In this document: positions 1,640 through 57,841 of the stretch, in pieces
Numbering within the stretch: the first letter of the stretch is position 1
How the letters are laid out: every line of letters begins with the position of its first letter
DNA from: Candidatus Kerfeldbacteria bacterium RIFCSPLOWO2_02_FULL_42_19
GTDB taxonomy: Bacteria > Patescibacteriota > Patescibacteriia > HO2-48-17
Direction of reading: 5' to 3'
DNA length: 64,000 nt
NCBI GenBank assembly: GCA_001818315.1
Contig: MHKF01000012.1
Span: forward strand, 23,976 to 87,975
The notes under the pieces: generated by a model
What the model was told of the DNA's origin: nothing
The model's input: the letters and a program-made list of their open reading frames with translations, nothing else
Databases searched by the model: none
Made by a program: the position numbers and the translations under genes

Positions 1640-2248
1640 ATGAAAATTCCAAAACAAGCACGATGTGTATTTCGTGGAGTCATTTTCGACGTGTATCAAT
1701 GGAAGCAGCGATTGTACGACGGTTCGACGGTTACTTTCGAACGTCTCAAGCGGCCGGACACTGTGCAGGTTATTGCAACCAGCGGCAAAAAAATTTTTAT
1801 TTCTGATGAAAAACAACCTGATCGTCCACGGTTTTTTTCCCTTTTTGGTGGCCGAATAGAAGTTGGTGAAACGCCTCTCGAAGCCGCGAAAAGGGAATTT
1901 TTTGAAGAATCGGGCATGGAATCGCCTGATTGGGAGTTTGTAAAATATTACGAACCCGTCGTAAAAATTGATTGGAAGATTCATTTGTTCATTGCGCGTC
2001 ATTGTGAACAAAAATCACGGCAGCAGTTAGAGGCAGGGGAAAGGATTCGCGTGCGAGCTGTTTCATTTCAGCAATTTTTCAATATTGTATTTTCTTCTAA
2101 ATTTCGTGGGGTAGAATTTTCCTATGACATGTTAAAAATGCGAACATTGCAACGGCGAGAATTTGAGGCGTTTCGCAGACATTTATTTGATGGGACTGTC
2201 GCCGAATACCGTTTTTTATACAATGTGCAAAACAAAAGAGGAGGATGA
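1640..2248 (+). CDS. NUDIX hydrolase
   Basis: Nudix box GGRIEVGETPLEAAKREFFEESGM (G-x5-E-x7-REUxEExGU). A possible promoter TTGCAA-18-TATAGA lies upstream (~1546..1575). The last ~19 codons and the stop lie inside repeat sequence (see 2192..2349). Confidence 0.8.
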   Translation: MKIPKQARCVFRGVIFDVYQWKQRLYDGSTVTFERLKRPDTVQVIATSGKKIFISDEKQPDRPRFFSLFGGRIEVGETPLEAAKREFFEESGMESPDWEFVKYYEPVVKIDWKIHLFIARHCEQKSRQQLEAGERIRVRAVSFQQFFNIVFSSKFRGVEFSYDMLKMRTLQRREFEAFRRHLFDGTVAEYRFLYNVQNKRGG

Positions 2249-2349
2249 TTCTCCTTTCTCAGCACACTGTGCAGTGTGAGTGTTTCGAAAGCGAGGGCTA
2301 TCCTCTTCTTTTGTTTTGTGTCTTGAACAAGAAAACATTCGGTGACCGT
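2192..2349. repeat. composite interspersed repeat: family-A left terminal inverted repeat (GGGACTGTCGCCGAATACC, 2192-2210), family-B hairpin element (2229-2318), and an A-right-TIR-like sequence CATTCGGTGACCG (2337-2349)
   Basis: Direct sequence matches to the elements at 54395..54616, 24671..24812, 20878..21041 and 36427..36588. The B core is CTCAGCACACTGTGCAGTGTGAGTGTTTCGAAAG. Confidence 0.7.
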
Positions 2350-3345: not shown

Positions 3346-4671
3346 ATGGTTTTTAAAGAATTATTTAAAAAAATAATTCCTGCAACAATTTTGAGCGCCT
3401 ATCATTTGATGCTTGCATGGGTTGCTGCAGTTTGGTATCGATTTCCTTCTCGTAGGCTTATTGTTATTGGCGTAACCGGTACGAAAGGAAAATCGACGAC
3501 GAGTTTTTTTATTACTAAACTTCTCGAAACACTCGGTGAATCTGTCGGGCTCTCGGGCACGATTATGTTTAAGGTTGGACGTCGCGAATGGCCGAATACT
3601 CTCAAGATGACGATGCCAGGTCGATTTCGTTTGCAGCGATTATTGCGGGATATGGTTCGTGCGGGTTGCGCGTTCGCTGTGATCGAGACAACTTCAGAAG
3701 GTATTGCTCAGCACCGGCATCGCGGCATCGACTATGACGTGCTTGTTTTTACAAATCTTTCTCCAGAGCATATCGAGCGACACGGGAGTTTTGAAGCGTA
3801 TAAGCGTGCTAAACAATCGTTGTTTCAGAATTTGCATCGTAGTTTTCATAAAAATCTTTTTTTCCATAAGCAAGTTCGGCGTATTCTTAAAGTTATCGTT
3901 GTGAATCGTGATGATCCTCATTTCGCTGGTTTTGTGCAATTTTCTGCTGATCAACACGTCGCTGTGAGTCTCTGTGATACAGCTGCTGCAATTTTTGCTC
4001 GCGATGTTATTTCAAATGACTCCGGCAATACATTTACCGTGGCCGATCAACATTTTACTTTGTCGTTACTTGGAGATTTTAATGTCATGAATGCTTTACT
4101 CACATTAGCCGTCGGTGCCGTGTTTGATTTTTCTTTAGAGCATATGAGGTTGGCGCTTGCGAAACTCCCGCAGATTCCAGGGCGTATGCAGCGCATTGAT
4201 GGAGGTCAGGATTTTACGGTGATTGTTGATTACGCTCATGAACCCAAAAGTATGGAAGCGTTGTTTCGTAATGCAAAGCGTCTACGAAAAAATCCGCAGA
4301 GTCGCATTATTACTCTGATAAGTTCTACCGGCGGTGGTCGAGATGTTGCACGTCGACCTATGCTCGGTAAACTCGCTGGTGGGTATGCGGATATTGTGAT
4401 TGTGACTGACGAAGATCCGTATGATGAGGATCCGAATGTTATTATGCAAGCGGTTGCAAGGGGTGTTGTCGAAGCTGGAAAAATACTCGGTCAAACTTTT
4501 TTCATTTTTCAAGATCGCAAGGAAGCTATTTTCGAAGCCATTCGTTTGGCTCGTAGTGGTGATGTAGTGCTTTTACCCGCAAAAGGCTCGGAACGAGTCA
4601 TGGCCGTAGCACATAATACACATATTCCGTGGAGCGACGAAGCTATCGCTCGAGAAGCTTTGAAAAAGTAG
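3346..4671 (+). CDS. murE: MurE-like Mur ligase (UDP-MurNAc-tripeptide synthetase family) that lacks the N-terminal UDP-binding domain and carries an N-terminal TM helix instead
   Basis: P-loop GVTGTKGKSTT. It matches E. coli MurE segment by segment: TMPGRFRLQRLLRDMVRAGC and FTNLSPEHIERHGSFEAYKRAK align with LQRLLAEMVDAGC and [22 protein letters not shown]. The C-terminal LLPAKGSE...SD motif is also MurE-like. The DNPR position reads DEDPY. An in-frame stop at 3322 rules out an upstream extension. Confidence 0.65.
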   Translation: MVFKELFKKIIPATILSAYHLMLAWVAAVWYRFPSRRLIVIGVTGTKGKSTTSFFITKLLETLGESVGLSGTIMFKVGRREWPNTLKMTMPGRFRLQRLLRDMVRAGCAFAVIETTSEGIAQHRHRGIDYDVLVFTNLSPEHIERHGSFEAYKRAKQSLFQNLHRSFHKNLFFHKQVRRILKVIVVNRDDPHFAGFVQFSADQHVAVSLCDTAAAIFARDVISNDSGNTFTVADQHFTLSLLGDFNVMNALLTLAVGAVFDFSLEHMRLALAKLPQIPGRMQRIDGGQDFTVIVDYAHEPKSMEALFRNAKRLRKNPQSRIITLISSTGGGRDVARRPMLGKLAGGYADIVIVTDEDPYDEDPNVIMQAVARGVVEAGKILGQTFFIFQDRKEAIFEAIRLARSGDVVLLPAKGSERVMAVAHNTHIPWSDEAIAREALKK

Positions 4672-14427: not shown

Positions 14428-14452
14428 TGCTATACTGGGATTATCGCCATAG

Positions 14453-16726
14453 GTGTTTTCGTCACGAAATTTTCAATTATTTCTGAGTATTTTCATGCCT
14501 CGTAGTCCCAAGAAAATTGCCAAGCGCGAAACTTCAGTTCTCGATACACTTTCCCCAAAACTTCACCCGCAAGCACAACGCGGAATTCTTGTCATTCTCC
14601 TTTTTGCATTTGGCGCCCTGGCGTTTTTAAGTTTTTTACATGTCGCTGGCCGTGTTGGTGAATGGTTCGCATGGGCACTGATGCTTTTTTTTGGTTGGGG
14701 GAGATTTTTGGTACCTGTTATTGTTTTTGCTCTCGGGTATGTACTTTTGTTTGCGCGTAAATACCAATGGCGATTTGTGGAATATGGCGGTTTTGTACTG
14801 TTGTTGTTGAGTATTTTTGGCATGCTTCATTTTCTTGTACCGGCTGACGCAATGGTTGATAGTATTCCAGTTGGTCAGGGAGGCGGTTACGTTGGTTTCG
14901 CTGTTGCTTGGGTTGTGTATTCACTGTTCGGAGTGTACGCAGGTTGGGTAGTATTTGCTACATTGTTTTTGATTGCTATTCTTTTAGTTTTTAATAACAC
15001 GGCCATTCTTTGGTTGAATCGCATTGGCGGTTTCGCAGGTTTTCTTTCGCGTCTTAAAGATTGGTTTCGTAAAACTGAAGTACATCAAGAGGAATTAGCG
15101 TCTCCTCAGGAAGCTAGCACTGATACCTCTATTATGTCTGCATCGGTAAATCGCGCAAAACCAGAAGACGATCGTGAACCTTCACAGCTTGTATCGCGCG
15201 AGGACGTTGGAACTCAGGAGCATATTCCATTTTCTATTCGACATCCCAGACGGATTGAGATACCGCTTTCGTTGTTGCAAGATAAAGCCGGAAAAGCAAC
15301 GGCGCGAGATATTGTTGTGAATCGGGATCGTATTCAGACGACGTTGAAGAATTTTGGTATTGAAGTAACGATGCATGATGTACACGTTGGGCCAACAGTT
15401 ACGCAGTATGAATTGAAACCCGCTGATGGTGTGAAATTATCCCAAATTCTTACTTTAAAGCGCGATTTGGCATTGGCTTTAGCAGCTCATCCTATTCGCA
15501 TTGAAGCGCCGATCCCTGGGAAAGCACTCGTGGGTATTGAAGTGCCAAATCAATCTGTGGCACTCGTGCGTTTGAAGGAATTGTTGCAGGCACAGGAATT
15601 TAAAAAACGTCGTTCACATTTGACGTTGGCTATCGGCAAGGACGTGGCTGGAACAGTGTTTCTTGCCGAACTTGGAAAAATGCCCCATATGCTTATCGCC
15701 GGGGCGACAGGTTCAGGGAAATCCGTTGCTATTAATAGTCTCATTCTGGGTTTGTTGTTTCAGAATAGCCCTACATCACTGCGATTGATATTGATTGATC
15801 CAAAACGGGTGGAACTCACGGTTTATAATGATATTCCGTATCTTCTGACTCCAGTTATTACGGACTATGAGAAAACAGTGAATGCCTTGAAGTGGGCCGT
15901 GGGGGAGATGGATCGACGCTATGAACTTCTTTCACAAGCTCAGAAACGTCATCTTGATAACTACAACGCGACTGCTCTTGAGAAATTACCGTACATCGTT
16001 ATTGTCATTGATGAATTAGCTGATCTTATGGCAACCTCGGCTCGAGAAATTGAAGCTATTGTTGTGCGTCTGGCACAAATGGCGCGGGCGGTTGGTATCC
16101 ATTTGATTCTTTCTACGCAGCGACCTTCAGTAGACGTGATTACCGGACTCATTAAAGCAAATATTACGACACGTCTTGCTTTTGCAGTCGCTTCGATTAT
16201 TGATTCACGTACTATTCTGGATTTTCAAGGCGCTGAGTCTCTTTTAGGGAACGGAGATATGTTGTATATTTCTGCTGAGCTCTCAAAACCGAAACGACTT
16301 CAGGGTACTTTTGTGGATGATGCTGAGATTAATAATGTAGTAGCCTTTTTACGCAAGCAGCAGGAGCCGAATTATAATTCGGATATTGTGACGCGGCAAT
16401 CGCGTGTTATGGTCCCCGGAGCTTTTCAGGATGCAGAGGACGAAGATGAGTTGTTGGATGCAGCGAAACGTGTCATTATAGAGTCAGGAAAAGCGTCGGC
16501 GTCACTTTTACAGAGGAGGCTCCGTGTGGGGTATGCGCGCGCTGCTCGTATTCTGGATATTCTCGAAGAACAAGGCATTATTGGGCCCGCAGATGGAGCA
16601 AAGCCTCGTGAAATTCTGATTACTTCCGAAGAAGGATTTGACACTGCGCCGGCTTTAACGGAAGAAAGCGAAATGACAGAGACGGAAGACGATGCGCCGC
16701 CGTCACTCCGTCGCAAATCTTTCTAA
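14453..16726 (+). CDS. ftsK: DNA translocase FtsK/SpoIIIE
   Basis: N-terminal TM region, Walker A LIAGATGSGKSVAINS, an RLAQMARAVGIHLILSTQRPS motor motif, and a C-terminal gamma winged-helix (LLQRRLRVGYARAARILDILEEQGIIGP). Confidence 0.92.
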   Translation: MFSSRNFQLFLSIFMPRSPKKIAKRETSVLDTLSPKLHPQAQRGILVILLFAFGALAFLSFLHVAGRVGEWFAWALMLFFGWGRFLVPVIVFALGYVLLFARKYQWRFVEYGGFVLLLLSIFGMLHFLVPADAMVDSIPVGQGGGYVGFAVAWVVYSLFGVYAGWVVFATLFLIAILLVFNNTAILWLNRIGGFAGFLSRLKDWFRKTEVHQEELASPQEASTDTSIMSASVNRAKPEDDREPSQLVSREDVGTQEHIPFSIRHPRRIEIPLSLLQDKAGKATARDIVVNRDRIQTTLKNFGIEVTMHDVHVGPTVTQYELKPADGVKLSQILTLKRDLALALAAHPIRIEAPIPGKALVGIEVPNQSVALVRLKELLQAQEFKKRRSHLTLAIGKDVAGTVFLAELGKMPHMLIAGATGSGKSVAINSLILGLLFQNSPTSLRLILIDPKRVELTVYNDIPYLLTPVITDYEKTVNALKWAVGEMDRRYELLSQAQKRHLDNYNATALEKLPYIVIVIDELADLMATSAREIEAIVVRLAQMARAVGIHLILSTQRPSVDVITGLIKANITTRLAFAVASIIDSRTILDFQGAESLLGNGDMLYISAELSKPKRLQGTFVDDAEINNVVAFLRKQQEPNYNSDIVTRQSRVMVPGAFQDAEDEDELLDAAKRVIIESGKASASLLQRRLRVGYARAARILDILEEQGIIGPADGAKPREILITSEEGFDTAPALTEESEMTETEDDAPPSLRRKSF

Positions 16727-18520: not shown

Positions 18521-18685
18521 AGCGGAGTAAGGGGTAATATATATTTTTTCAAATGCTGTGATATCCAAGCATGAATGTTTTGTATTTTTGAAAAAGTTTT
18601 TTGAGTGCACACTCTTCTCGCTCTCTGATGAAAGTTACTTATCACAACGCATTTGAAGAAAACATATATTACCCCTTACTCCGCT
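18521..18685. repeat. 165-bp near-perfect palindromic element immediately downstream of recA
   Basis: Left arm AGCGGAGTAAGGGGTAATATATATTTT (18521-18547) pairs with right arm AAAACATATATTACCCCTTACTCCGCT (18659-18685) with one mismatch. The arms extend inward (TTCAAATGC/GCATTTGAA and TGTGATA/TATCACA) to ~44 bp around a ~75-nt central loop. Confidence 0.8.
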
Positions 18686-20700: not shown

Positions 20701-20877
20701 AAAATACCTTCAGGTTCAGGCGTTTCTTGATCACAGATATTTTGGCTTATATCGGCCATATTTTTATGATTATACCTCATTTTGCAACGCGCACTTATGT
20801 CTTATCCTTGTTGTTATGTTCTGATACTATAATTTTAAGATAACCAAAATTTATTTTTGTGTAAAGTTTTACTTTTA

Positions 20878-21041
20878 GGGGTCTGTCGCCGAATACGCTT
20901 TCGTCTGTGAAATCGTAGAATTTCGTGACAGAACCGCTGAATAAATTTTGAGGTTTATATGGAATATAAGCTGAAAAATTTTGAAGCGATTCTGGCCGAA
21001 ATGCTACGATTGCAACAGAAATGGTATTCGGCGACAGACCC
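20878..21041. mobile_element. family-A MITE-like element, copy 1 (164 bp, no coding capacity)
   Basis: Terminal inverted repeats GGGTCTGTCGCCGAATAC at 20878-20895 and 21024-21041. It is ~90% identical over its full length to the reverse complement of 36427..36588. Both copies are flanked by TTTTA/TTTA(A). Confidence 0.8.
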
Positions 21042-21123
21042 TTTATACAAACACAACCCCCGAAATAGTGGGGATTGTGTGATTACAATCTCAGAGCCCT
21101 GTGTTTTGGTTTTTAAGAGATTT

Positions 21124-22827
<1,704 letters not shown>

Positions 22828-23249: not shown

Positions 23250-23278
23250 ATCTTATCGGTAAAGTTTTTTTTCGTCAA
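23250..23278 (-). promoter_or_regulatory. putative groESL promoter (TTGACG-17-TAAGAT on the minus strand), immediately followed by CIRCE
   Basis: Hexamers and 17-nt spacer read from the sequence. The same ~37-bp segment recurs at 24596..24632. Confidence 0.5.
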
Positions 23279-23323
23279 GAGCTTCTTATTGTAACATGAC
23301 ATATGCAACTCATATGAGAAAAA

Positions 23324-24595: not shown

Positions 24596-24624
24596 ACTTT
24601 ATAAGCAAAGTTTTTTTTCGTCAA
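24596..24624 (-). promoter_or_regulatory. putative promoter of 23644..24528 (TTGACG-17-TAAAGT), a duplicate of the groESL promoter segment
   Basis: AGCTCTTGACGAAAAAAAACTTT is shared verbatim with 23256..23283. Confidence 0.45.
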
Positions 24625-24670
24625 GAGCTGGAGTACCTCATGAATCTCCTACGATTTTTTGCTCATTTTT

Positions 24671-24769
24671 AACTATAGAAAAAGAGGAGGAAGACTTCTC
24701 CTTTCTCAGCACACTGTGCAGTGTCAGTGCTTCGAAAGCGAGAGTCATTCCCCTCTTTTTCTATAGTTA
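24671..24769. repeat. family-B hairpin element, copy 2 (99 bp) with a perfect 17-bp terminal inverted repeat AACTATAGAAAAAGAGG
   Basis: Core TCTCAGCACACTGTGCAGTGTCAGTGCTTCGAAAGCGAGAG. The arms covary relative to the other copies. Confidence 0.8.
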
Positions 24770-24778
24770 AAACTCATG

Positions 24779-24812
24779 TTTCACAGACGAAAGCGTATTC
24801 GGCGCCAGACCC
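24779..24812. repeat. solo family-A TIR fragment (34 bp)
   Basis: TTTCACAGACGAAAGCGTATTCGGCGCCAGACCC is the reverse complement of the first 34 bp of element 20878..21041 with one mismatch. Confidence 0.75.
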
Positions 24813-35441: not shown

Positions 35442-36362
35442 TTAATTTGGTTCAATAATAATCATCAATTTTTCTCCACTTTCCACGTTTCCATTATTCC
35501 AATCGTGGATCGCGTTCATGAGTGTTGATGCCTTATACACATAACCTTCACCGCGTTTGGTGCCTGGATCATTGGTAATAAAATTGTCATCTTTAGTGTA
35601 GCCGCGAATAACGAGCATGTGATACAGTGGACCTTCGCCGGTAAAGTAAGGGTTACCAAGCATACGCCCAGCAGCTGGAATCATCACGGGAAAACCTTGC
35701 GTGAGCGCTGCTTTGATAGTTTCTATTTTTGCTGGTTCCACACGTACGTTCGTGTATCCCCATAGGTCTTGTATGAATCGAGCGGTTTCTTGAGCGGTTG
35801 TGTCTTTATAAAATCCATAATACTGTTCTTGAAAATCTACAAGATCGAGAATTTTTTTGTCAGCGCGCGCTGGATCAAGCGTGAGATTTGTATAGAAAGC
35901 GTGGACCATGAGCGCTGCCGCTTCCTCACATGCTTCTTGGTAGGGGAGCGCCCAATTCGCGTACGGCGCTTGTGACGTGAATGGCACCGCGAGATTGATG
36001 GATTCCGGAATAATAGCGTTGGGTTTTTTGATTTCGGTCGTGTCCTGAGTAGTTTGCTCTTGCGGCATCGCTGATTCATTTGCAAATTCGAGAGTGTTCA
36101 GCTGTTCGGTCTCGAGATTTTTTTGCGTTGTTTCTGCCGGTGCATTGGATGTTGCGTTTGTTACTTCGTCGACGTTTTGTACTTCTCCATCATTTATATT
36201 TTGCAGCTGTTGTACCTCTGCATAACTTTGTGCTTGAGGTAGACTTGATTGAATGCTTGCTCGTTGCCAACTTTCATATGTTTCTCGAAGGCGCGCACGC
36301 AATAAAAATCCAATACCTACGACTAGGATGAGGATGAAGAGTATTTCAAATTTTTTGTACAT
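35442..36362 (-). CDS. membrane-anchored C39-like (papain-fold) cysteine peptidase
   Basis: N-terminal TM helix. The C-terminal domain has Gln/Cys (QAPYANWALPYQEACEEAA) and His (HMLVIRGY) in C39_2-like order. I trimmed the start to MYKKF because the longer ORF runs into the MITE. Confidence 0.5.
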   Translation of the reverse strand: MYKKFEILFILILVVGIGFLLRARLRETYESWQRASIQSSLPQAQSYAEVQQLQNINDGEVQNVDEVTNATSNAPAETTQKNLETEQLNTLEFANESAMPQEQTTQDTTEIKKPNAIIPESINLAVPFTSQAPYANWALPYQEACEEAAALMVHAFYTNLTLDPARADKKILDLVDFQEQYYGFYKDTTAQETARFIQDLWGYTNVRVEPAKIETIKAALTQGFPVMIPAAGRMLGNPYFTGEGPLYHMLVIRGYTKDDNFITNDPGTKRGEGYVYKASTLMNAIHDWNNGNVESGEKLMIIIEPN

Positions 36363-36426
36363 GTTTGGACTGCAATGATTCCGCTCTGCGGAGGTTGTGT
36401 GTAACTTTTCTAACACGACCTTTTAA

Positions 36427-36588
36427 GGGTCTGTCGCCGAATACCATTTCTGCTGCAATCGTAGAATTTCGGTCAGCATCGTTTCAAAATTTTTCGGCTT
36501 ATATTCCATATAAACCTCAAAATTTATTCAGCGATTCTGTCACGAAATTCTACGATTTCGTGACGAAAGCGTATTCGGCGACAGACCC
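36427..36588. mobile_element. family-A MITE-like element, copy 2 (162 bp, inverted relative to copy 1)
   Basis: TIRs AAGGGTCTGTCGCCGAATAC / GTATTCGGCGACAGACCCTT. Flanked by TTTAA on both sides. Confidence 0.8.
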
Positions 36589-36852
36589 TTTAAACAGGAA
36601 GACAGCCGAACTATGACTGGCTGTCTTGGGGAACAATGAATGTACTGGTTGTATTTCGCTGTTAGTTTTATTTTAGCGCCGAAGTTTTCTGGTTTCAAGC
36701 TTCGTTGGTCTACCGATCAGGGAGCGATGATTGAAAGAGTGCTGTTGAAGTCGCAAGCCACTATTTCTTTTCCATTTGAATCCTCCTTGATTCAGTTTGG
36801 TTGTTGGTTGCAAAAATCGCAATAGAACTACGAAAGACATATAAGCACGAGC

Positions 36853-39663
36853 ATGATTGACAGTCAAGATTTTGTGTTTGCGATGTTTTTATGCTGTAAT
36901 TATTCTATGTTTTGTTTTCAATCTTTACATTATTTCGCAAATTATCTGAAGCGTGCATTTTATAGTATTTTGCGAATATTACGATGTCGCACTCTTTATG
37001 TTTTCGCAATCGTGATCTTCATCACCGTTATTGTCGACTCGACGCCTCTTCTCGCTGCGGAAAATTTTGAAGCACCGGATTTTCAGGTCACACTGAGGGT
37101 TGCTGTAGCGCCCCAAGATATTGCTCCTCAAGCACAAGGAAGTTCGCTTCAGCAACTTGTGCGACAGGTTTTGAGGTTTTTCGCTCCTTTCGATCGCGTT
37201 GCACAAGCAACTTCATCTGTGGACGCGAAAACATTCGTTTCAACCGAACCTGTATGGATGCAATTACTTCGTGCTGTGTCACGCCCCGAACCCACACTCA
37301 TTTTTGTTTTTCTTTTTCTCGCATCCCTTTGCTATGCGCTATATGTGACGCGTGGGACAAAACATTTTTTTACTTTATTTTACAAGCCTCGCGCGCATCT
37401 CTTTCATCATCTCGCAAGGCGGAATTCGACCGGAACGTACCTTCACTCGTATGCGCGTTTTCATCTCCATGCTTTCCTTTCGAAGCACTTTGCGCTCGTC
37501 AGCGGTTTTCTCTTATTCGCGAAAGTTACTGTTGTCGCTGGCCTTGCAACTTTACTGTTGGATTTTCCGTTGCTTTCACGCGCTACTGAGCGTGATGTGC
37601 CTGTGTTTCCGGGGGCAATGCTTACATATCACATCGAATATGATAATCAAAGCGATACATCTCTTTCGCGAGTTCAATTTTCTCACGTATTTCCTCCTGG
37701 CACCGCGTATGTTCCCGGAACGTTTCTTTGGAATAACATCTCTCTCACTGATGTAGCTGATGAAGACGGATTTACGATAACCGACGGTGGATTTACTTTA
37801 CAATCGAATCAACTGCCAGTCGGCACAGGATCGTTTTCGTGGAACCTACGAGTCGCTCATCCTGCTCAAACGAACGCTATCGCAAGTAAAGTTGGATATC
37901 AAATAGATGACGGATTGTTGCAACAAACGAATACTTTCGTGAATCCGGTTGTTACTTTGACGATTTCAGGCAAGGCTTTTTATGATGTGAATCGCAATAA
38001 TGTTTTTGACGCAACGACTGAAACCGGCATCGCCGATGTTCACTTCGCTTTGTATGAAGATACGAATCAGAGCGACGTGTTTGACGGAACTGATACACTG
38101 CTTGCGGAAATGAATACTGCGGAACAAGGCCTCTATCATTTTTCGGGTTTGCGTCCAGGACTTTTTTTTGTAAAAGTTGTGGATGCTCGTGAGGGTCCTT
38201 ATGAACTTCTCGGTGGCTTTCAGGAGGTGCGATTGCAGGCGCTGGAGAGTGTCTCGAGTCAAGACGTCGCTTATATTTTACCTGATGTTGCGCAGAAATC
38301 GACGGTAATGTTCGGTACGCTTTGGCATGATATCGATCGTAATCAACAACATGATGATGGCGAGACGAATTTTAGTGATATAGAGTTACGTTTGTATCGC
38401 GATGCAGCGCACAAGGGTGTTTTGGAAACTCTGAATGATACACTTGTTGCAAGTACGTTCACGGATGAGGACGGTCGATTTCGATTTTTAATTCCAGAAG
38501 AAGGTGATTATTTTGTCCTGGTGTTGATGGAACGATTGCCGCAGGGGTATACATTGACGACCGCTAACCAACCGAAGCGTATTGCTGTGGACGTGGATAC
38601 ATCGGAAACGAATGTCGATAGTTTTGGATATGCATTGCCAACGAGCAGCATCGGTGACGAAGTTTTTGAGGATAGCAATAATAATACCTTGCATGATGCC
38701 ACTGAAGCTGGATTTTCTGATGTGCAAGTGCTGTTGTATCGTGACGATGGCTCGGAGCAATTCGAAGAAGCTTTGGATAATCGTATTGCTGAAACTTTTA
38801 CCGATTCCCAAGGGAAATATCTCTTTTCTCATGTAGCTTCGGGAGGGTACTTTGTAATGATTGACACTGCGACACTTCCGGACGAATCCGGATATCGTTT
38901 GACGACAGCTTCCAATCCTCGCTTTGTTGAAATTGTGATCGATACAGATCAAATGAACCTTCTTTCCGATTTTGGGTTTCGTTCGGAAACAGTAGGGAAT
39001 GATATTCCCTCTTCGTCTGGGTCTCAGTCCAATATCGGCACCGGAGCGACTCCACAATCCGCATCATCACGCATGACTACTCAGTCTGCTCAGGTTCCAA
39101 CGGAGACTATTCCTCAAACGAAACTGAATGTTGTACAGAAACCTGTGTCAGATACTCCGCAAGAGCCTGCAGTTACCACGCTTGATGTTGATTCCGATAC
39201 TGACGCTACATTATCTCCACAGAGTGTGGCGCAATCTGAGCAATCTGCTGGCGATAGTGTTCCAACTGTAACGCCGCAGCCAGTTACCACCGAATCTGAT
39301 TCTTCTGGGGAGGGTTTACAAATACAAAATGATACGGGTTATAAGAGTCGTCCTGTTACTTTACGTCCGTGGGCCACAGAAGATGCTTCGCAGGCTGCAT
39401 TCGAGAATCTCCAAAGACAACTTATGCAGTATGCGGTACGTTTGACTCCGTATGCGGCTTCCGTTTCCTGGTTGGAAACTCCGACGCAACGTTTTTCTGT
39501 GTTTCCTCATACACTCTTGCCTATTATCTTTTTTGTTATTGTTCTTTCATATTGTCTTATGTTGCTTCATGCGTCGGAACGTTCAAAATTTTCACACCGC
39601 TCATCCGTTGTTTATAGTCGCAAAAAGCCTCGTCGCAAAACGTATGCGCGCGTTAGTGAATAA
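36853..39663 (+). CDS. large secreted surface protein with four or more SdrD/Cna-B-type repeats, a Ser/Thr/Pro/Gln-rich stalk and a C-terminal TM anchor
   Basis: Repeated D-x-N-x-N-G-x-x-D...G...V-x-V-x-L...G-x-Y-x-F modules (e.g. FYDVNRNNVFDATTETGIADVHFALY...GLYHFSGLRPGLFFVKV). The start codon is uncertain, and the end overlaps the uvrC start by 20 nt. Confidence 0.6.
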   Translation: MIDSQDFVFAMFLCCNYSMFCFQSLHYFANYLKRAFYSILRILRCRTLYVFAIVIFITVIVDSTPLLAAENFEAPDFQVTLRVAVAPQDIAPQAQGSSLQQLVRQVLRFFAPFDRVAQATSSVDAKTFVSTEPVWMQLLRAVSRPEPTLIFVFLFLASLCYALYVTRGTKHFFTLFYKPRAHLFHHLARRNSTGTYLHSYARFHLHAFLSKHFALVSGFLLFAKVTVVAGLATLLLDFPLLSRATERDVPVFPGAMLTYHIEYDNQSDTSLSRVQFSHVFPPGTAYVPGTFLWNNISLTDVADEDGFTITDGGFTLQSNQLPVGTGSFSWNLRVAHPAQTNAIASKVGYQIDDGLLQQTNTFVNPVVTLTISGKAFYDVNRNNVFDATTETGIADVHFALYEDTNQSDVFDGTDTLLAEMNTAEQGLYHFSGLRPGLFFVKVVDAREGPYELLGGFQEVRLQALESVSSQDVAYILPDVAQKSTVMFGTLWHDIDRNQQHDDGETNFSDIELRLYRDAAHKGVLETLNDTLVASTFTDEDGRFRFLIPEEGDYFVLVLMERLPQGYTLTTANQPKRIAVDVDTSETNVDSFGYALPTSSIGDEVFEDSNNNTLHDATEAGFSDVQVLLYRDDGSEQFEEALDNRIAETFTDSQGKYLFSHVASGGYFVMIDTATLPDESGYRLTTASNPRFVEIVIDTDQMNLLSDFGFRSETVGNDIPSSSGSQSNIGTGATPQSASSRMTTQSAQVPTETIPQTKLNVVQKPVSDTPQEPAVTTLDVDSDTDATLSPQSVAQSEQSAGDSVPTVTPQPVTTESDSSGEGLQIQNDTGYKSRPVTLRPWATEDASQAAFENLQRQLMQYAVRLTPYAASVSWLETPTQRFSVFPHTLLPIIFFVIVLSYCLMLLHASERSKFSHRSSVVYSRKKPRRKTYARVSE

Positions 39664-54394: not shown

Positions 54395-54616
54395 GGGACT
54401 GTCGCCGAATACGCTTTCTTCTGTGAAAAATATATTTTAACTTGATAATTCCGCGCTAGCTTACTGCGCGGAGGTTCATTATGGAAAAAGAGGATGCAGA
54501 CTCTCGCTTTCGAAGCACTAACACTGCACTGTGTGCTGAGAAAGGAGAGTCTGCATCCTCTTTTTCCATAATGAAAACTCATTTCGCACATCCGAAAGTG
54601 CATTCGGCGACAGTGC
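54395..54616. repeat. composite element: family-A left TIR (54395-54428), a spacer with the AACTTGATAATTCCGCGC motif, a nested family-B hairpin element (54477-54573), and an A-right-TIR-like CATTCGGCGACAGTG (54601-54615)
   Basis: GGGACTGTCGCCGAATACGCTTTCTTCTGTGAAA matches the first 34 bp of 20878..21041. The B element here has TIR CATTATGGAAAAAGAGG / CCTCTTTTTCCATAATG. Confidence 0.75.
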
Positions 54617-54618
54617 TA

Positions 54619-57570
54619 TTATTGAGGAACAAGTTGCACCTTATTTTCTTCGCGCCTTTGTAGTTGCTGAACGAGTTGTGTGATTTTTTCGAGCCAGTGA
54701 TTTCCAAGTTGGGATTGCTTCGTCCGCACATGAAAGTTTGTCACATATTCCCAGGGTTCTCTGTAAAGTCCTTTTGGTATTACTTCGCTTGTTTTGATGA
54801 TGATTTTAAAATCCTGGGGTTTCGTGTCAAGTATTGGAACGGAGTCAATCTCAGTCAGTATACTTTGTTCTGCGAGTATTTTTATTTTGATGAGTTGTAA
54901 TAGGTTGTGTAAGGTTGTTGGTAAAGGAACATGCGTTGAAAGTTTTTGCTTTAAGTCGTTGAATGCATCTACAGATTCGATTTTTGCAAGTTTTCGATAT
55001 AATTCCAAGCGTTTTTCTTCGTTGGGTTCGTATTCCAATGGGATGTATGCTTCGAGCGGCAAATCGATGTGTACATCTCTTTTTACAGCGACACTTTTTG
55101 AATGTTGTAATTCATCGACCGCAAATTTCATGAGTCGCAGATAAAGATGAAGTCCGATGCGTACGGCGTGTCCATGTTGTTCTTTTCCGAGAATATTACC
55201 GATCCCGCGAATTTCCATATCACGTTTGGCGATGTCCAGGCCAGCTCCGAGTTCGCTTGCTTCTTCGAGTGCTGTAAGTCGCTCGTGAGCTGTTTCACTC
55301 AATTTGTTTCGGTGCGTTAAAAAGTAGGCAAAGGCTTGACGATTGCCTCTGCCGATGCGTCCCCGTAGTTGATGGAGTTGGGCGAGTCCAAAGTTTTCTG
55401 CCTCGTCCACAATGAGCGTATTCACATTTGGAAGATCGATGCCATTTTCGATAATCGTGGAACAGAGCAGTATATCGATTGATCCTTGATCAAAAACATG
55501 CATGACGTTTGCAAGTGTCGTATCAGGTAATTGACCGTGCGCAATGCCGATGTGCGCTTTGGGGAGCAGCGTCTGGATTTCATATTTGCGTTTTTCGATG
55601 CTCGGAATATGGTTGTGAAGAAAATAAACTTGTCCTTTACGGTTGAGTTCGAAAGCGAGCGCTTTTTGGATCACTGCATCACTCGTATGAGCAACATGAG
55701 TTTGGATTGCTTTACGGTTTGACGGTGGAGTTTCGAGGTAACTTATCGATTTAATGCCGGAAAGGGCAAGATACAGGGTCCGCGGAATGGGTGTTGCAGA
55801 GAGTGTCAAAACGTGCACGCCGGTTTTGAATGCAATGAGTTTTTCTTTTTGTTTGACGCCAAAGCGTTGTTCTTCATCGATAATCACAAGTCCGAGTTTT
55901 GGAAACTGAATGTCTTTTCCAAGGAGCGTGTGCGTTGCGATGATCACGTCAATGAGCCCGTCTTTGAGCGCTCGTTGTGTTTGTTGTTTTTCTTTTGATT
56001 TTTTCCATCTCGTTAAAAGCGCTCCTCGTATTGGTAGACCCTTGGTTCGTTCTGTGAATGTGTCGAAGTGTTGTTGTGCTAAGATCGTTGTCGGAGCAAG
56101 TAATGCTACTTGATATCCGTTGAGTGCTGCGTGCACTGCTGCACGCAGAGCGATTTCTGTTTTTCCGAATCCAACATCGCCACACAGAAGGTGATCCATA
56201 GGAGTTTCTGTGGAAAGTTCCTGAACAATTTTTTTGAGCGCCGTTTTTTGATCTTGTGTCAGTTCATAGGCGAATGTTTCTTCGAGTATTGTTTCCTCTG
56301 ATTGTATTGTGAATGTGCTGGTTTTCGCGTTCGCACGTTTCGCATGCTGATCCAGGAGTTCTTTGGCAATGTGTTCTGTGCTTTTTTTTACAATATGCAG
56401 AGTTTCCTGCCAGGTATTTCCAGAGAGTGAATGGAGTTTAGGATGTTCTGTACCTACGTAGCGTTCGATGCGATCCAGTTGATCAACGGGTACGAAGAGT
56501 TTATCTTTTCCAGCGTACTGAATTGCAACGAAGTCTCGATTTTTTCCGTTGATGTACATACGTGTGAGACCGATGTATTTACCGATGCCGTGATAGATAT
56601 GCACAACAAAACACCCAAGCGTGAGTTGGTCGAGGGTAATTTTTGTTTTTGTTTTTCGGAGCGAAGTTTGTTTTTCTGTTTTTCCAAAAAGATGGAGATC
56701 GGTGAGGAAAAGTACCCTGTGTTTTGGATCAATGAAGCCTTTGTCTTGCGCAAGGTTGAAAGTGTTCTGTATATTTTCCGGAAGTATCGTGATTTTCGGG
56801 AATGTTTCTTTGGGGAAGAGGGTTTGTATTTTGTGGGGATGATCTGTAGTAATAAAAATTTGAAAGTCGCCGTATTTTCGCGCATCTTTTTGTATGCGGG
56901 TTACGTCGCTGTGATACCACTGCGGTATTTTGAATCTCACATTATTTAGATTTTCCAAAAGAGTGTGATGCGGAAAATAGTTTTGAATAGTCCACGGTGT
57001 TTGTTTTTCTGATATTAAGTTGATAGGTAATTTGAGTTTCGAAATTTTTTTGAGTACTGCTTTTGTATTGTGATGGATACGTGTGATCTGTTCTATATTA
57101 TTTTCTTCAAACTGTATGCGATAGAGATCAGTCTCATTCGGAAGCCAGACTTCTAGAATTTCGCCTTTGCCCGCGAAGGTAAGGGGGGTATTGCAAGTTT
57201 TTTCATGTGTGAATCCTTGGCGTATAAGAAAACTCGCAATGTGTCTGGGTTCGTATATGTTTTGTTTTATTAAGGTGAGTGATGATTCTTTGAGAGTTTG
57301 TGGATTTTTGAGCGTAAGCGTTTCGATGTCTTTTATAGCGATAATAATATTCGCTTCGTGAGGTAGAAATAGGAGTGTTTGTTGCGAATATTGTGGTACT
57401 GTTTTTGCAAGTGTTGCGACTGAAGCGTTTTTTGTAAAACGCATCACGAGTTCGGCAAGCGTTTTTTGCTCTTCCGTATTTTTTGAAAAATACAAAACAC
57501 CCTTGTGTGATGTAAGAGGGATGTGTGCAAGCGTGTATGCCTTTGCTGGAAGTCCGAGTATTGCTGGCAT
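54619..57570 (-). CDS. mfd: transcription-repair coupling factor Mfd
   Basis: RecG-like SF2 motor (GDVGFGKTE, DEEQRFGV) and a C-terminal TRCF domain. At 983 aa the N-terminal UvrB-homology module is shorter than in E. coli. Confidence 0.9.
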   Translation of the reverse strand: MPAILGLPAKAYTLAHIPLTSHKGVLYFSKNTEEQKTLAELVMRFTKNASVATLAKTVPQYSQQTLLFLPHEANIIIAIKDIETLTLKNPQTLKESSLTLIKQNIYEPRHIASFLIRQGFTHEKTCNTPLTFAGKGEILEVWLPNETDLYRIQFEENNIEQITRIHHNTKAVLKKISKLKLPINLISEKQTPWTIQNYFPHHTLLENLNNVRFKIPQWYHSDVTRIQKDARKYGDFQIFITTDHPHKIQTLFPKETFPKITILPENIQNTFNLAQDKGFIDPKHRVLFLTDLHLFGKTEKQTSLRKTKTKITLDQLTLGCFVVHIYHGIGKYIGLTRMYINGKNRDFVAIQYAGKDKLFVPVDQLDRIERYVGTEHPKLHSLSGNTWQETLHIVKKSTEHIAKELLDQHAKRANAKTSTFTIQSEETILEETFAYELTQDQKTALKKIVQELSTETPMDHLLCGDVGFGKTEIALRAAVHAALNGYQVALLAPTTILAQQHFDTFTERTKGLPIRGALLTRWKKSKEKQQTQRALKDGLIDVIIATHTLLGKDIQFPKLGLVIIDEEQRFGVKQKEKLIAFKTGVHVLTLSATPIPRTLYLALSGIKSISYLETPPSNRKAIQTHVAHTSDAVIQKALAFELNRKGQVYFLHNHIPSIEKRKYEIQTLLPKAHIGIAHGQLPDTTLANVMHVFDQGSIDILLCSTIIENGIDLPNVNTLIVDEAENFGLAQLHQLRGRIGRGNRQAFAYFLTHRNKLSETAHERLTALEEASELGAGLDIAKRDMEIRGIGNILGKEQHGHAVRIGLHLYLRLMKFAVDELQHSKSVAVKRDVHIDLPLEAYIPLEYEPNEEKRLELYRKLAKIESVDAFNDLKQKLSTHVPLPTTLHNLLQLIKIKILAEQSILTEIDSVPILDTKPQDFKIIIKTSEVIPKGLYREPWEYVTNFHVRTKQSQLGNHWLEKITQLVQQLQRREENKVQLVPQ

Positions 57571-57652
57571 GTTTTGAGTATACCATGAATCCTTATCAAA
57601 GAAATTTTTTTGCTTCTCAATATTTTCATCGCAGCAAGCAAGTTTATAGAAT

Positions 57653-57735
57653 GAAAAGAGGAGGAGACTCTATCTTTCGAAGCACTAACAATGCACAGTG
57701 TGCTGAGACAGTATAGAGTCTCACTCCTCTTTGTC
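57653..57735. repeat. family-B hairpin element, copy 4
   Basis: Core CTTTCGAAGCACTAACAATGCACAGTGTGCTGAGACAG flanked by complementary arms GAAAAGAGGAGGAGACTCTAT / ATAGAGTCTCACTCCTCTTTGTC. Confidence 0.75.
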
Positions 57736-57841
57736 TGTACAATCAAAACTCGCTTTTTAGAGGCGAAGCGTATGTGATGGAATTTAAAAAATGCAAAACC
57801 TTCCACAGAAAGTGTGGAAGGTACGGTGTGCGATGGAGAGA

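Follow-up and report, generated by a model that had tools for sequence, protein, structure and literature searches.

Non-autonomous DNA transposons (MITEs) of bacteria include Correia/NEMIS in Neisseria, RUP in Streptococcus pneumoniae, and Nezha in cyanobacteria. In general they are small, non-coding, multicopy, and mostly intergenic. They carry terminal inverted repeats (TIRs) flanked by target-site duplications (TSDs), form a long stem-loop, and give rise to deletion derivatives and chimeras. The bcr1 repeat of the Bacillus cereus group is of similar habit, being a non-coding unit of ~155 nt present in dozens of copies with a reported 5-bp TTTAT duplication. No transposase is known for bcr1, and it is not known to have a TIR comparable to an 18-bp perfect repeat. 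REP and REPIN sequences are short, GC-rich palindromes and inverted doublets that lie densely in intergenic regions. Their mobilization by HUH (RAYT-type) enzymes, like that of IS200/IS605, makes no target duplication. Tn3 is the only prokaryotic family known to join G-run ends with a 5-bp AT-rich duplication. Genomes of Patescibacteria are very small and usually described as poor in mobile DNA. TIMEs, which are Tn3-derived miniatures, are 262 bp long with 38-bp inverted repeats, 5-bp AT-rich duplications, and stable hairpin folds; TIMEs and Tn3 transposons are mostly single-copy per replicon, which has been attributed to transposition immunity (PMC4133298).

Here we analyze a repeat family, family A, in a 64,000-nt stretch of DNA (the window). 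The source of the window is Candidatus Kerfeldbacteria bacterium RIFCSPHIGHO2_02_FULL_42_14, an organism of the Rifle aquifer, in which it spans positions 24102-88101 of one 320-kb scaffold. We assign a probability of roughly 0.92 to the reading that family-A repeats are copies of a MITE specific to Patescibacteria. This upholds the original prediction, made from the window alone, of a non-autonomous transposon, and rests on TIRs at both ends, a TSD of fixed length and variable sequence, a small non-coding body, and dispersed copies whose presence is polymorphic, with empty sites in relatives. Family A shares with bacterial MITEs in general all of the traits listed above. It sets itself apart by its 5-bp TSD (TA or 3 bp in several MITEs of other bacteria), its Patescibacteria host, the lack of any cognate insertion sequence among our search results, and its 37-bp TIR-N-TIR derivatives. 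Family A and bcr1 are alike in size, copy habit, and reported length of the duplication, and unrelated in sequence and host. Like TIMEs, family A is non-coding, has AT-rich 5-bp duplications, G-run ends, and stable stem-loops, and forms chimeric or composite derivatives. TIMEs differ in that their inverted repeats are demonstrably homologous to those of known Tn3-family transposons and their hosts are Pseudomonas and other Gammaproteobacteria. Unlike REPINs, which depend on a single-copy HUH enzyme, family A has 5-bp TSDs and precise empty sites. It is a genuine MITE family of an ordinary kind, and new as judged by full-text literature searches, in which neither this family nor another MITE of Patescibacteria was found to be described. 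Nothing usable emerged when full texts were queried for the TIR string or for the ends of IS701 or ISLbi1. The family is of interest for reaching several candidate phyla, for lying densely in very small genomes, for its minimal derivatives of 37 bp, and for a transposase that was not found.

Full-Length Copies in the Window

The window contains two full-length copies in opposite orientation. Copy 1 (20879-21041, plus strand) is 163 nt long, with TIRs at 20879-20896 and 21024-21041, and copy 2 (36427-36588, minus strand) is 162 nt long. They are identical at 153 of 163 positions (93.9%), in line with the two inverted ~163-bp copies of ~90% identity originally predicted, except that copy 1 starts at 20879, one base further in. 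The shared terminal inverted repeat also stood up to inspection. An exact 18-nt TIR, GGGTCTGTCGCCGAATAC, occupies all four ends, at 20879-20896(+), 21024-21041(-), 36427-36444(+), and 36571-36588(-). The same sequence recurs with one mismatch at 2192(+), 24795(-), and 54395(+), giving seven matches in the window where dinucleotide shuffles predict 0.02. A search with an nhmmer profile of the family revealed no further family-A copies in the window.

Homology between the copies stops exactly at the TIRs, where the TSDs begin. Copy 2 is flanked by a perfect duplication, TTTAA (36422-36426 and 36589-36593), and copy 1 by TTTAG (20874-20878) and TTTAT (21042-21046), which match at four of five positions. 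The flanks had been described as TTTA(A)-like; TTTAA does lie on both sides of copy 2, but it is not a fixed sequence, as the duplication is 5 bp long with the general form WTWAW. Copy 1 is bordered by the terminator hairpin of groEL and by the gene that comes next on the minus strand, and its strand folds as a single hairpin (-82.9 kcal/mol; z = -13.9). Copy 2 sits between divergent neighbors, a Peptidase_C39_2 protein (35442-36362, minus strand) and a 936-aa surface protein (36853-39663, plus strand). With one imperfect TSD, the two copies would appear to be old insertions that are not currently active, which fits their 6% divergence.

Beyond the window, a third A-type copy lies on the same scaffold (locus L110, 15579-15740) with a perfect TSD, ATTTT. 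Altogether, the adjoining 16 kb of scaffold hold three more elements, bringing the total to ~10 elements in 80 kb. The loci of the window recur in 12-23 independently assembled contigs.

Chimeric B-Type Elements

The three one-mismatch TIRs of the window each adjoin a second repeat, module B, which is a hairpin of ~100 nt with a nearly perfect stem and a sequence unrelated to the family-A core. The TIR matches at 2192-2210, 24779-24812, and 54395-54428, originally listed as family-A end fragments, are thus real, but they are not isolated fragments: they are termini of chimeric elements. These B-type elements are a sister subfamily in which family-A termini and subterminal arms surround a different core.

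The longest of them (54395-54617, plus strand, 223 nt) has its left end at 54395-54412 (one mismatch) and its right end at 54600-54617 (four mismatches), the latter corresponding to a degenerate right end that had been placed, correctly, at 54601-54615. Its module B (54475-54575) has 31-nt arms (54475-54505 and 54545-54575) that are 100% complementary, and the whole element folds at -117.7 kcal/mol (z = -14.6). Its flanks, ATACT and ATTAT, match at three of five positions. The element at 2192-2348 (plus strand, 157 nt) combines a left TIR (2192-2209, one mismatch), module B (2234-2312), and a right end (2335-2348) with a 4-nt deletion, all within a perfect TSD, TTGAT (2187-2191 and 2349-2353). 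A one-ended element (24667-24812, minus strand) consists of module B (24667-24772) and, next to it, an intact family-A end reaching as far as the TIR at 24795-24812 (one mismatch); a second TIR is not recognizable. A decayed relic at ~57645-57790 retains module B (~57655-57730) and only a trace of a subterminal arm (GAAGCGTAT), with no TIR. A fifth copy lies just downstream of the window (L110, 14380-14562; module B at 14430-14520), and its perfect TSD, ATAAA, indicates that the B-type chimera has itself transposed. All five occurrences of module B on the source scaffold lie inside or beside family-A ends. It was absent from the other loci compared and was found in the source genome alone.

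Architecture and Coding Capacity

The full-length family-A unit measures 161-164 nt and bears the almost invariant 18-bp TIR at each end. Its halves are imperfect inverted copies of each other from TIR to center, and the partner ends were near-identical in the 150 unique elements analyzed. Strict conservation is limited to the 18 bp; the inverted symmetry beyond them is imperfect, extending to ~38-45 nt and further.

TIR pairs fall into size classes of 37, 44, 51, 53, 75, 85, 131, 161-164, and 235 nt, with 161-164 nt and 37 nt being the commonest. The 37-mer is a palindrome of the form TIR-N-TIR, to which the 44- and 51-mers add 7-nt GTATTCG units. The full element contains direct repeats, CCGAATAC, and a deletion between them would leave exactly the 37-mer. 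This match, together with the 7-nt steps, indicates that the short forms are made by slippage.

Near the center of the element, the motif GAGG-N7-ATG starts a short ORF that continues outward across the right TIR. Elsewhere among the subfamilies this ORF has another sequence, lies in another frame relative to the TIR, or lacks a start codon. As it is conserved neither in sequence nor in frame between subfamilies, the element is non-coding, as had been proposed. For the same reason, and since its 3' part mirrors the left arm, the internal peptide (MEYKLKNFE...) was rejected as the N-terminus of a transposase. The outward-reading ribosome-binding site and ATG can nevertheless mislead gene callers into spurious ORFs. 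For example, an 85-aa ORF (20959-21216) starts at the GAGG-ATG of copy 1, continues into flanking DNA, and overlaps the 3' end of groEL on the opposite strand. Public annotation calls this ORF a gene (L114, 4552-4809), which is probably an artifact of the MITE start signal.

Target-Site Duplications and Empty Sites

TSDs were sought at more insertion sites, as the original prediction had advised, using the 150 unique elements for which both flanks were available. Perfect 5-bp duplications flanked 80 of these (2.4% for shuffled partners), and a further 20 matched at four of five positions (shuffled partners, 10.9%). Perfect flank repeats occurred in 53% of elements at length 5, and the other lengths between 3 and 8 each gave 0-4%. 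The duplicated sequences are variable, with a consensus of WTWAW in which position 2 is T and position 4 is A in 74% of cases each. The flanking 5-mers did not behave as part of the conserved sequence, and no shared flanks beyond the TSD, of the kind left by spread through segmental duplication only, were seen.

Comparison of related loci, also advised, revealed two precise empty sites. An 85-nt element of H43-bin112_1 (L037, 1949-2033) lies within a duplicated ATTTA, and a single ATTTA is present at the corresponding site of MM_PC_MetaG.mb.212 (L091). Similarly, a 37-nt element of Modern_marine.mb.217 (L109, 4377-4413) lies within a duplicated TTAAT, and H43-bin112_1 (L074) has a single TTAAT. 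No deletion scars were seen at the empty sites. The locus of copy 1 was compared with that of the closest relative available (L232; 69% identity in the neighboring peptidase). There, the groEL-peptidase spacer is 132 nt long and keeps the terminator hairpin, but holds no element.

A different kind of polymorphism was observed in the L037/L091 pair. A 37-nt TIR-N-TIR unit (L091, 7497-7533) stands where L037 (2778-3726) has a membrane-protein gene of ~950 nt, which suggests an element-associated deletion or replacement.

Distribution

We scanned one genome per prokaryotic species (596 Gb) for the exact TIR. The scan returned at least 109 loci, nearly all in Patescibacteria MAGs. Carriers included Kerfeld-, Falkow-, and Magasanikbacteria, Parcubacteria/Patescibacteria group MAGs, and H43-bin112_1, Modern_marine.mb.217, and MM_PC_MetaG.mb.212. 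Two bins labeled Gammaproteobacteria hold contigs that resemble Patescibacteria: one (L056) shares orthologous ORFs with Patescibacteria loci, and the other (L067) is AT-rich with the same elements around rpsJ. The other single matches fell in GC-rich genomes, in a number close to the chance expectation (~35 per 18-mer in 596 Gb, as calculated). A scan of metagenomes added at least 114 loci, chiefly from Hainich and other groundwater. TIR-bounded elements thus number in the hundreds, in at least 12 other Patescibacteria genomes plus groundwater metagenomes, which answers the original call for further copies. In the Hainich H43 contigs, copies lie 1-2 kb apart at up to ~0.5 sites per kb, a density biased upwards since contigs were chosen for containing the TIR. 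Among IMG/VR viral contigs, the exact TIR had no match, and a degenerate TIR gave no more than six single matches, which are GC-rich and look accidental. Searching the whole element by blastn against phage and plasmid records yielded nothing, with 72,556 plasmids lacking a match over the ends.

Elements are strongly biased to intergenic DNA and often abut gene ends. Coding sequence lay on both sides of only 8 of 137 elements, compared with a coding fraction of ~0.8 by the same crude measure. A 44-nt derivative (L083, 1002-1045) is located within a glycosyltransferase ORF, at its 3' end. The reading frame stays open across the element (...GLSPNTEYGIWRQTL...), which thereby supplies the C-terminal residues of the protein. 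At L067, two full-length elements (3721-3883 and ~4377-4536) flank the gene for ribosomal protein S10, between tuf and rplC, which indicates that the hairpins are tolerated inside a highly expressed operon.

Contigs of H43-bin112_1 (JBBTVV01) and Modern_marine.mb.217 (JAHJAP01) often begin and end within the 18-nt TIR. Such termini identify the TIR repeat as a main cause of fragmentation in these MAGs, where many contigs end exactly in it. More broadly, a family common to several candidate phyla, at up to ~1 site per 2 kb in some MAGs, shows that these streamlined genomes tolerate or use the proliferation of repeats. The invariant 18-mer also serves as a lineage marker and as a handle for finding the transposase. 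In one further locus (L048, 281-3373), residues 519-583 of an anaerobic ribonucleotide reductase (NrdD) form a LAGLIDADG_3 domain, which likely represents an intein or an inserted homing endonuclease.

Hairpin Structure

RNAalifold analysis of ten subfamily representatives predicted a single stem of 56 pairs, with 95.9% of cells paired. Twenty-one of these pairs are changed on both sides, a number that none of 500 column shuffles reached and that exceeds the 4-8 obtained in slid registers. Such covariation of the arms could reflect the co-evolution of both ends with one transposase, an origin of subfamilies by fold-back of one end, or selection on the hairpin. Mismatches within the stem are asymmetric. 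On the strand carrying GAGG...ATG, G.T mismatches outnumber A.C mismatches by 285 to 99 (68:28 in 15 representatives), counts that are not phylogenetically independent. The excess hints at single-strand selection. An RNA function in one orientation is not supported by the position of elements relative to flanking genes (20 antisense and 11 sense, a bias that is not significant). A search of the whole window against Rfam 15 gave no matches at the gathering threshold. A GC-rich hairpin in AT-rich spacers could plausibly act as a terminator or RNA-stabilizing structure.

Search for a Transposase

As the original prediction had stated, no transposase is recognizable in the window: genes called over positions 17447-97434 of the scaffold (~80 kb, including the whole window) gave no transposase or integrase Pfam hit. 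The autonomous parent with a transposase encoded elsewhere, which it had suggested looking for, was not found in the sequences searched. Among the matches listed, ~1.2 Mb of TIR-bearing DNA contained no pair of TIRs (+/-) spaced 0.3-8 kb apart that had matching TSDs and enclosed an ORF resembling a transposase, even allowing up to eight mismatches in total over both ends. Where pairs of insertion-sequence size did have matching TSDs, the two ends belonged to separate small elements that happened to flank ordinary genes.

Several individual candidates were considered and rejected. The 983-aa ORF beside the long B-type element (54619-57570) has the size of a Tn3 transposase, but is Mfd/TRCF. In other genomes, ten ORFs of ~870-1200 aa lie beside TIRs; nine encode housekeeping proteins, such as DNA polymerases, UvrA, and ClpB, and one has no Pfam hit, leaving no transposase among them. 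ORFs just inside solo TIRs were judged by eye to be housekeeping genes, including those for IF-2, RF2, FtsW, Tgt, and MltG. Multicopy ORFs among the loci were orthologues and response regulators only. The autonomous parent may be rare, have diverged ends, or be lost from most genomes.

Mobilization and Origin of the Family

We propose that a transposase supplied in trans, presumably of the DDE type, would bind both 18-bp ends, which are its putative binding and cleavage sites. The ends would be joined to target DNA whose strands are cut 5 bp apart, preferentially at AT-rich, intergenic WTWAW sites, and gap repair would produce the 5-bp duplication. Internal deletion and slippage could then yield shorter forms, down to the 37-bp TIR-N-TIR palindrome, and capture of other sequence between the ends could yield chimeras such as the B-type elements of the window. 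Given its inverted halves, either strand of the element can fold into one long hairpin.

The identity of the parent is a narrower question, within which a Tn3 origin is compatible with the MITE reading. Under this hypothesis, family A would be a Tn3-derived, TIME-like miniature mobilized by a Tn3-family transposase of ~1000 aa encoded elsewhere. The element ends begin with GGG, and their first 11 bases, GGGTCTGTCGC (GGGTCTG...), resemble the Tn3 inverted repeat, GGGGTCTGACGC, a resemblance that we treat only as a lead. In addition, the imperfect inverted symmetry reaches ~38-45 nt and beyond, and 5-bp AT-rich TSDs are found in both Tn3-family transposons and TIMEs (PMC4133298). The copy number argues the other way, with elements 1-2 kb apart and ~10 in 80 kb of scaffold in place of the low copy number of that group, as do the 18 bp (not 38) of strict conservation and the 37-bp TIR-N-TIR units, which are flanked by TSDs of their own and are matched by an empty site. 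On these grounds we do not file family A under TIMEs. Moreover, neither a Tn3-family transposase nor a homologous inverted repeat was found: the ORFs of ~870-1200 aa near TIRs include no Tn3 TnpA, and the ends were unmatched by blastn in the 72,556 plasmids. We therefore regard a Tn3 parent as rather unlikely. It is conceivable, if doubtful, that the transposase instead represents a lineage that has yet to be tied to a family of insertion sequences. It could be a DDE enzyme confined to Patescibacteria, or else a 'domesticated' enzyme present in single copy, analogous to RAYT but making 5-bp duplications. An 18-bp end would suffice for such an enzyme, and the 37-bp hairpins would have colonized most intergenic spacers of some ~1-Mb genomes, to be retained as terminators or RNA stabilizers.

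Other explanations compete with the MITE reading itself. Selection for a functional RNA or DNA structure (a terminator, RNA stabilizer, or protein-binding site), with mobility incidental or past, would account for covariation along the whole stem, the excess of G.T over A.C on one strand, the very stable folds, and a placement that is almost exclusively intergenic and often at gene ends. Yet covarying arms are also expected from shared binding of a transposase or an origin by one-end fold-back, and the mismatch bias may descend from a few master copies. Since the elements are also polymorphic in presence among close relatives, match no Rfam family in the window at the gathering threshold, and lack a significant orientation bias, we consider this explanation very unlikely. 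High intergenic density, hairpin units as short as 37 nt, and the failure to find a multicopy transposase are likewise what would be expected if a HUH enzyme of the RAYT type, present in single copy, had spread palindromes of the REP/REPIN kind in place of a DDE transposase. However, the variable 5-bp duplications at 53% of elements, and empty sites that hold exactly one 5-mer, make such an origin highly improbable. The original prediction had reasoned that a lack of further copies and of empty-site polymorphism would point to a local duplication; further copies and empty sites were both found. A local duplication or assembly artifact is also contradicted by the recovery of the same loci in 12-23 independently assembled contigs, by copies in unrelated contexts of many genomes, and by homology that ends exactly at the TIRs with TSDs, and we give it next to no weight.

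Other Repeats of the Source Scaffold

Two further repeats of the window were observed. One, immediately downstream of recA (18521-18685), is a separate element of 165 nt whose inverted arms of 27 nt are 96% complementary. Its sequence is unrelated to family A, and no copy was present in the other loci compared. In addition, a 31-nt direct repeat, 90% identical between its two occurrences (23253-23283 and 24599-24629), sits upstream of two minus-strand units, the groES-groEL operon and a 294-aa ORF, and may represent a shared promoter or operator.
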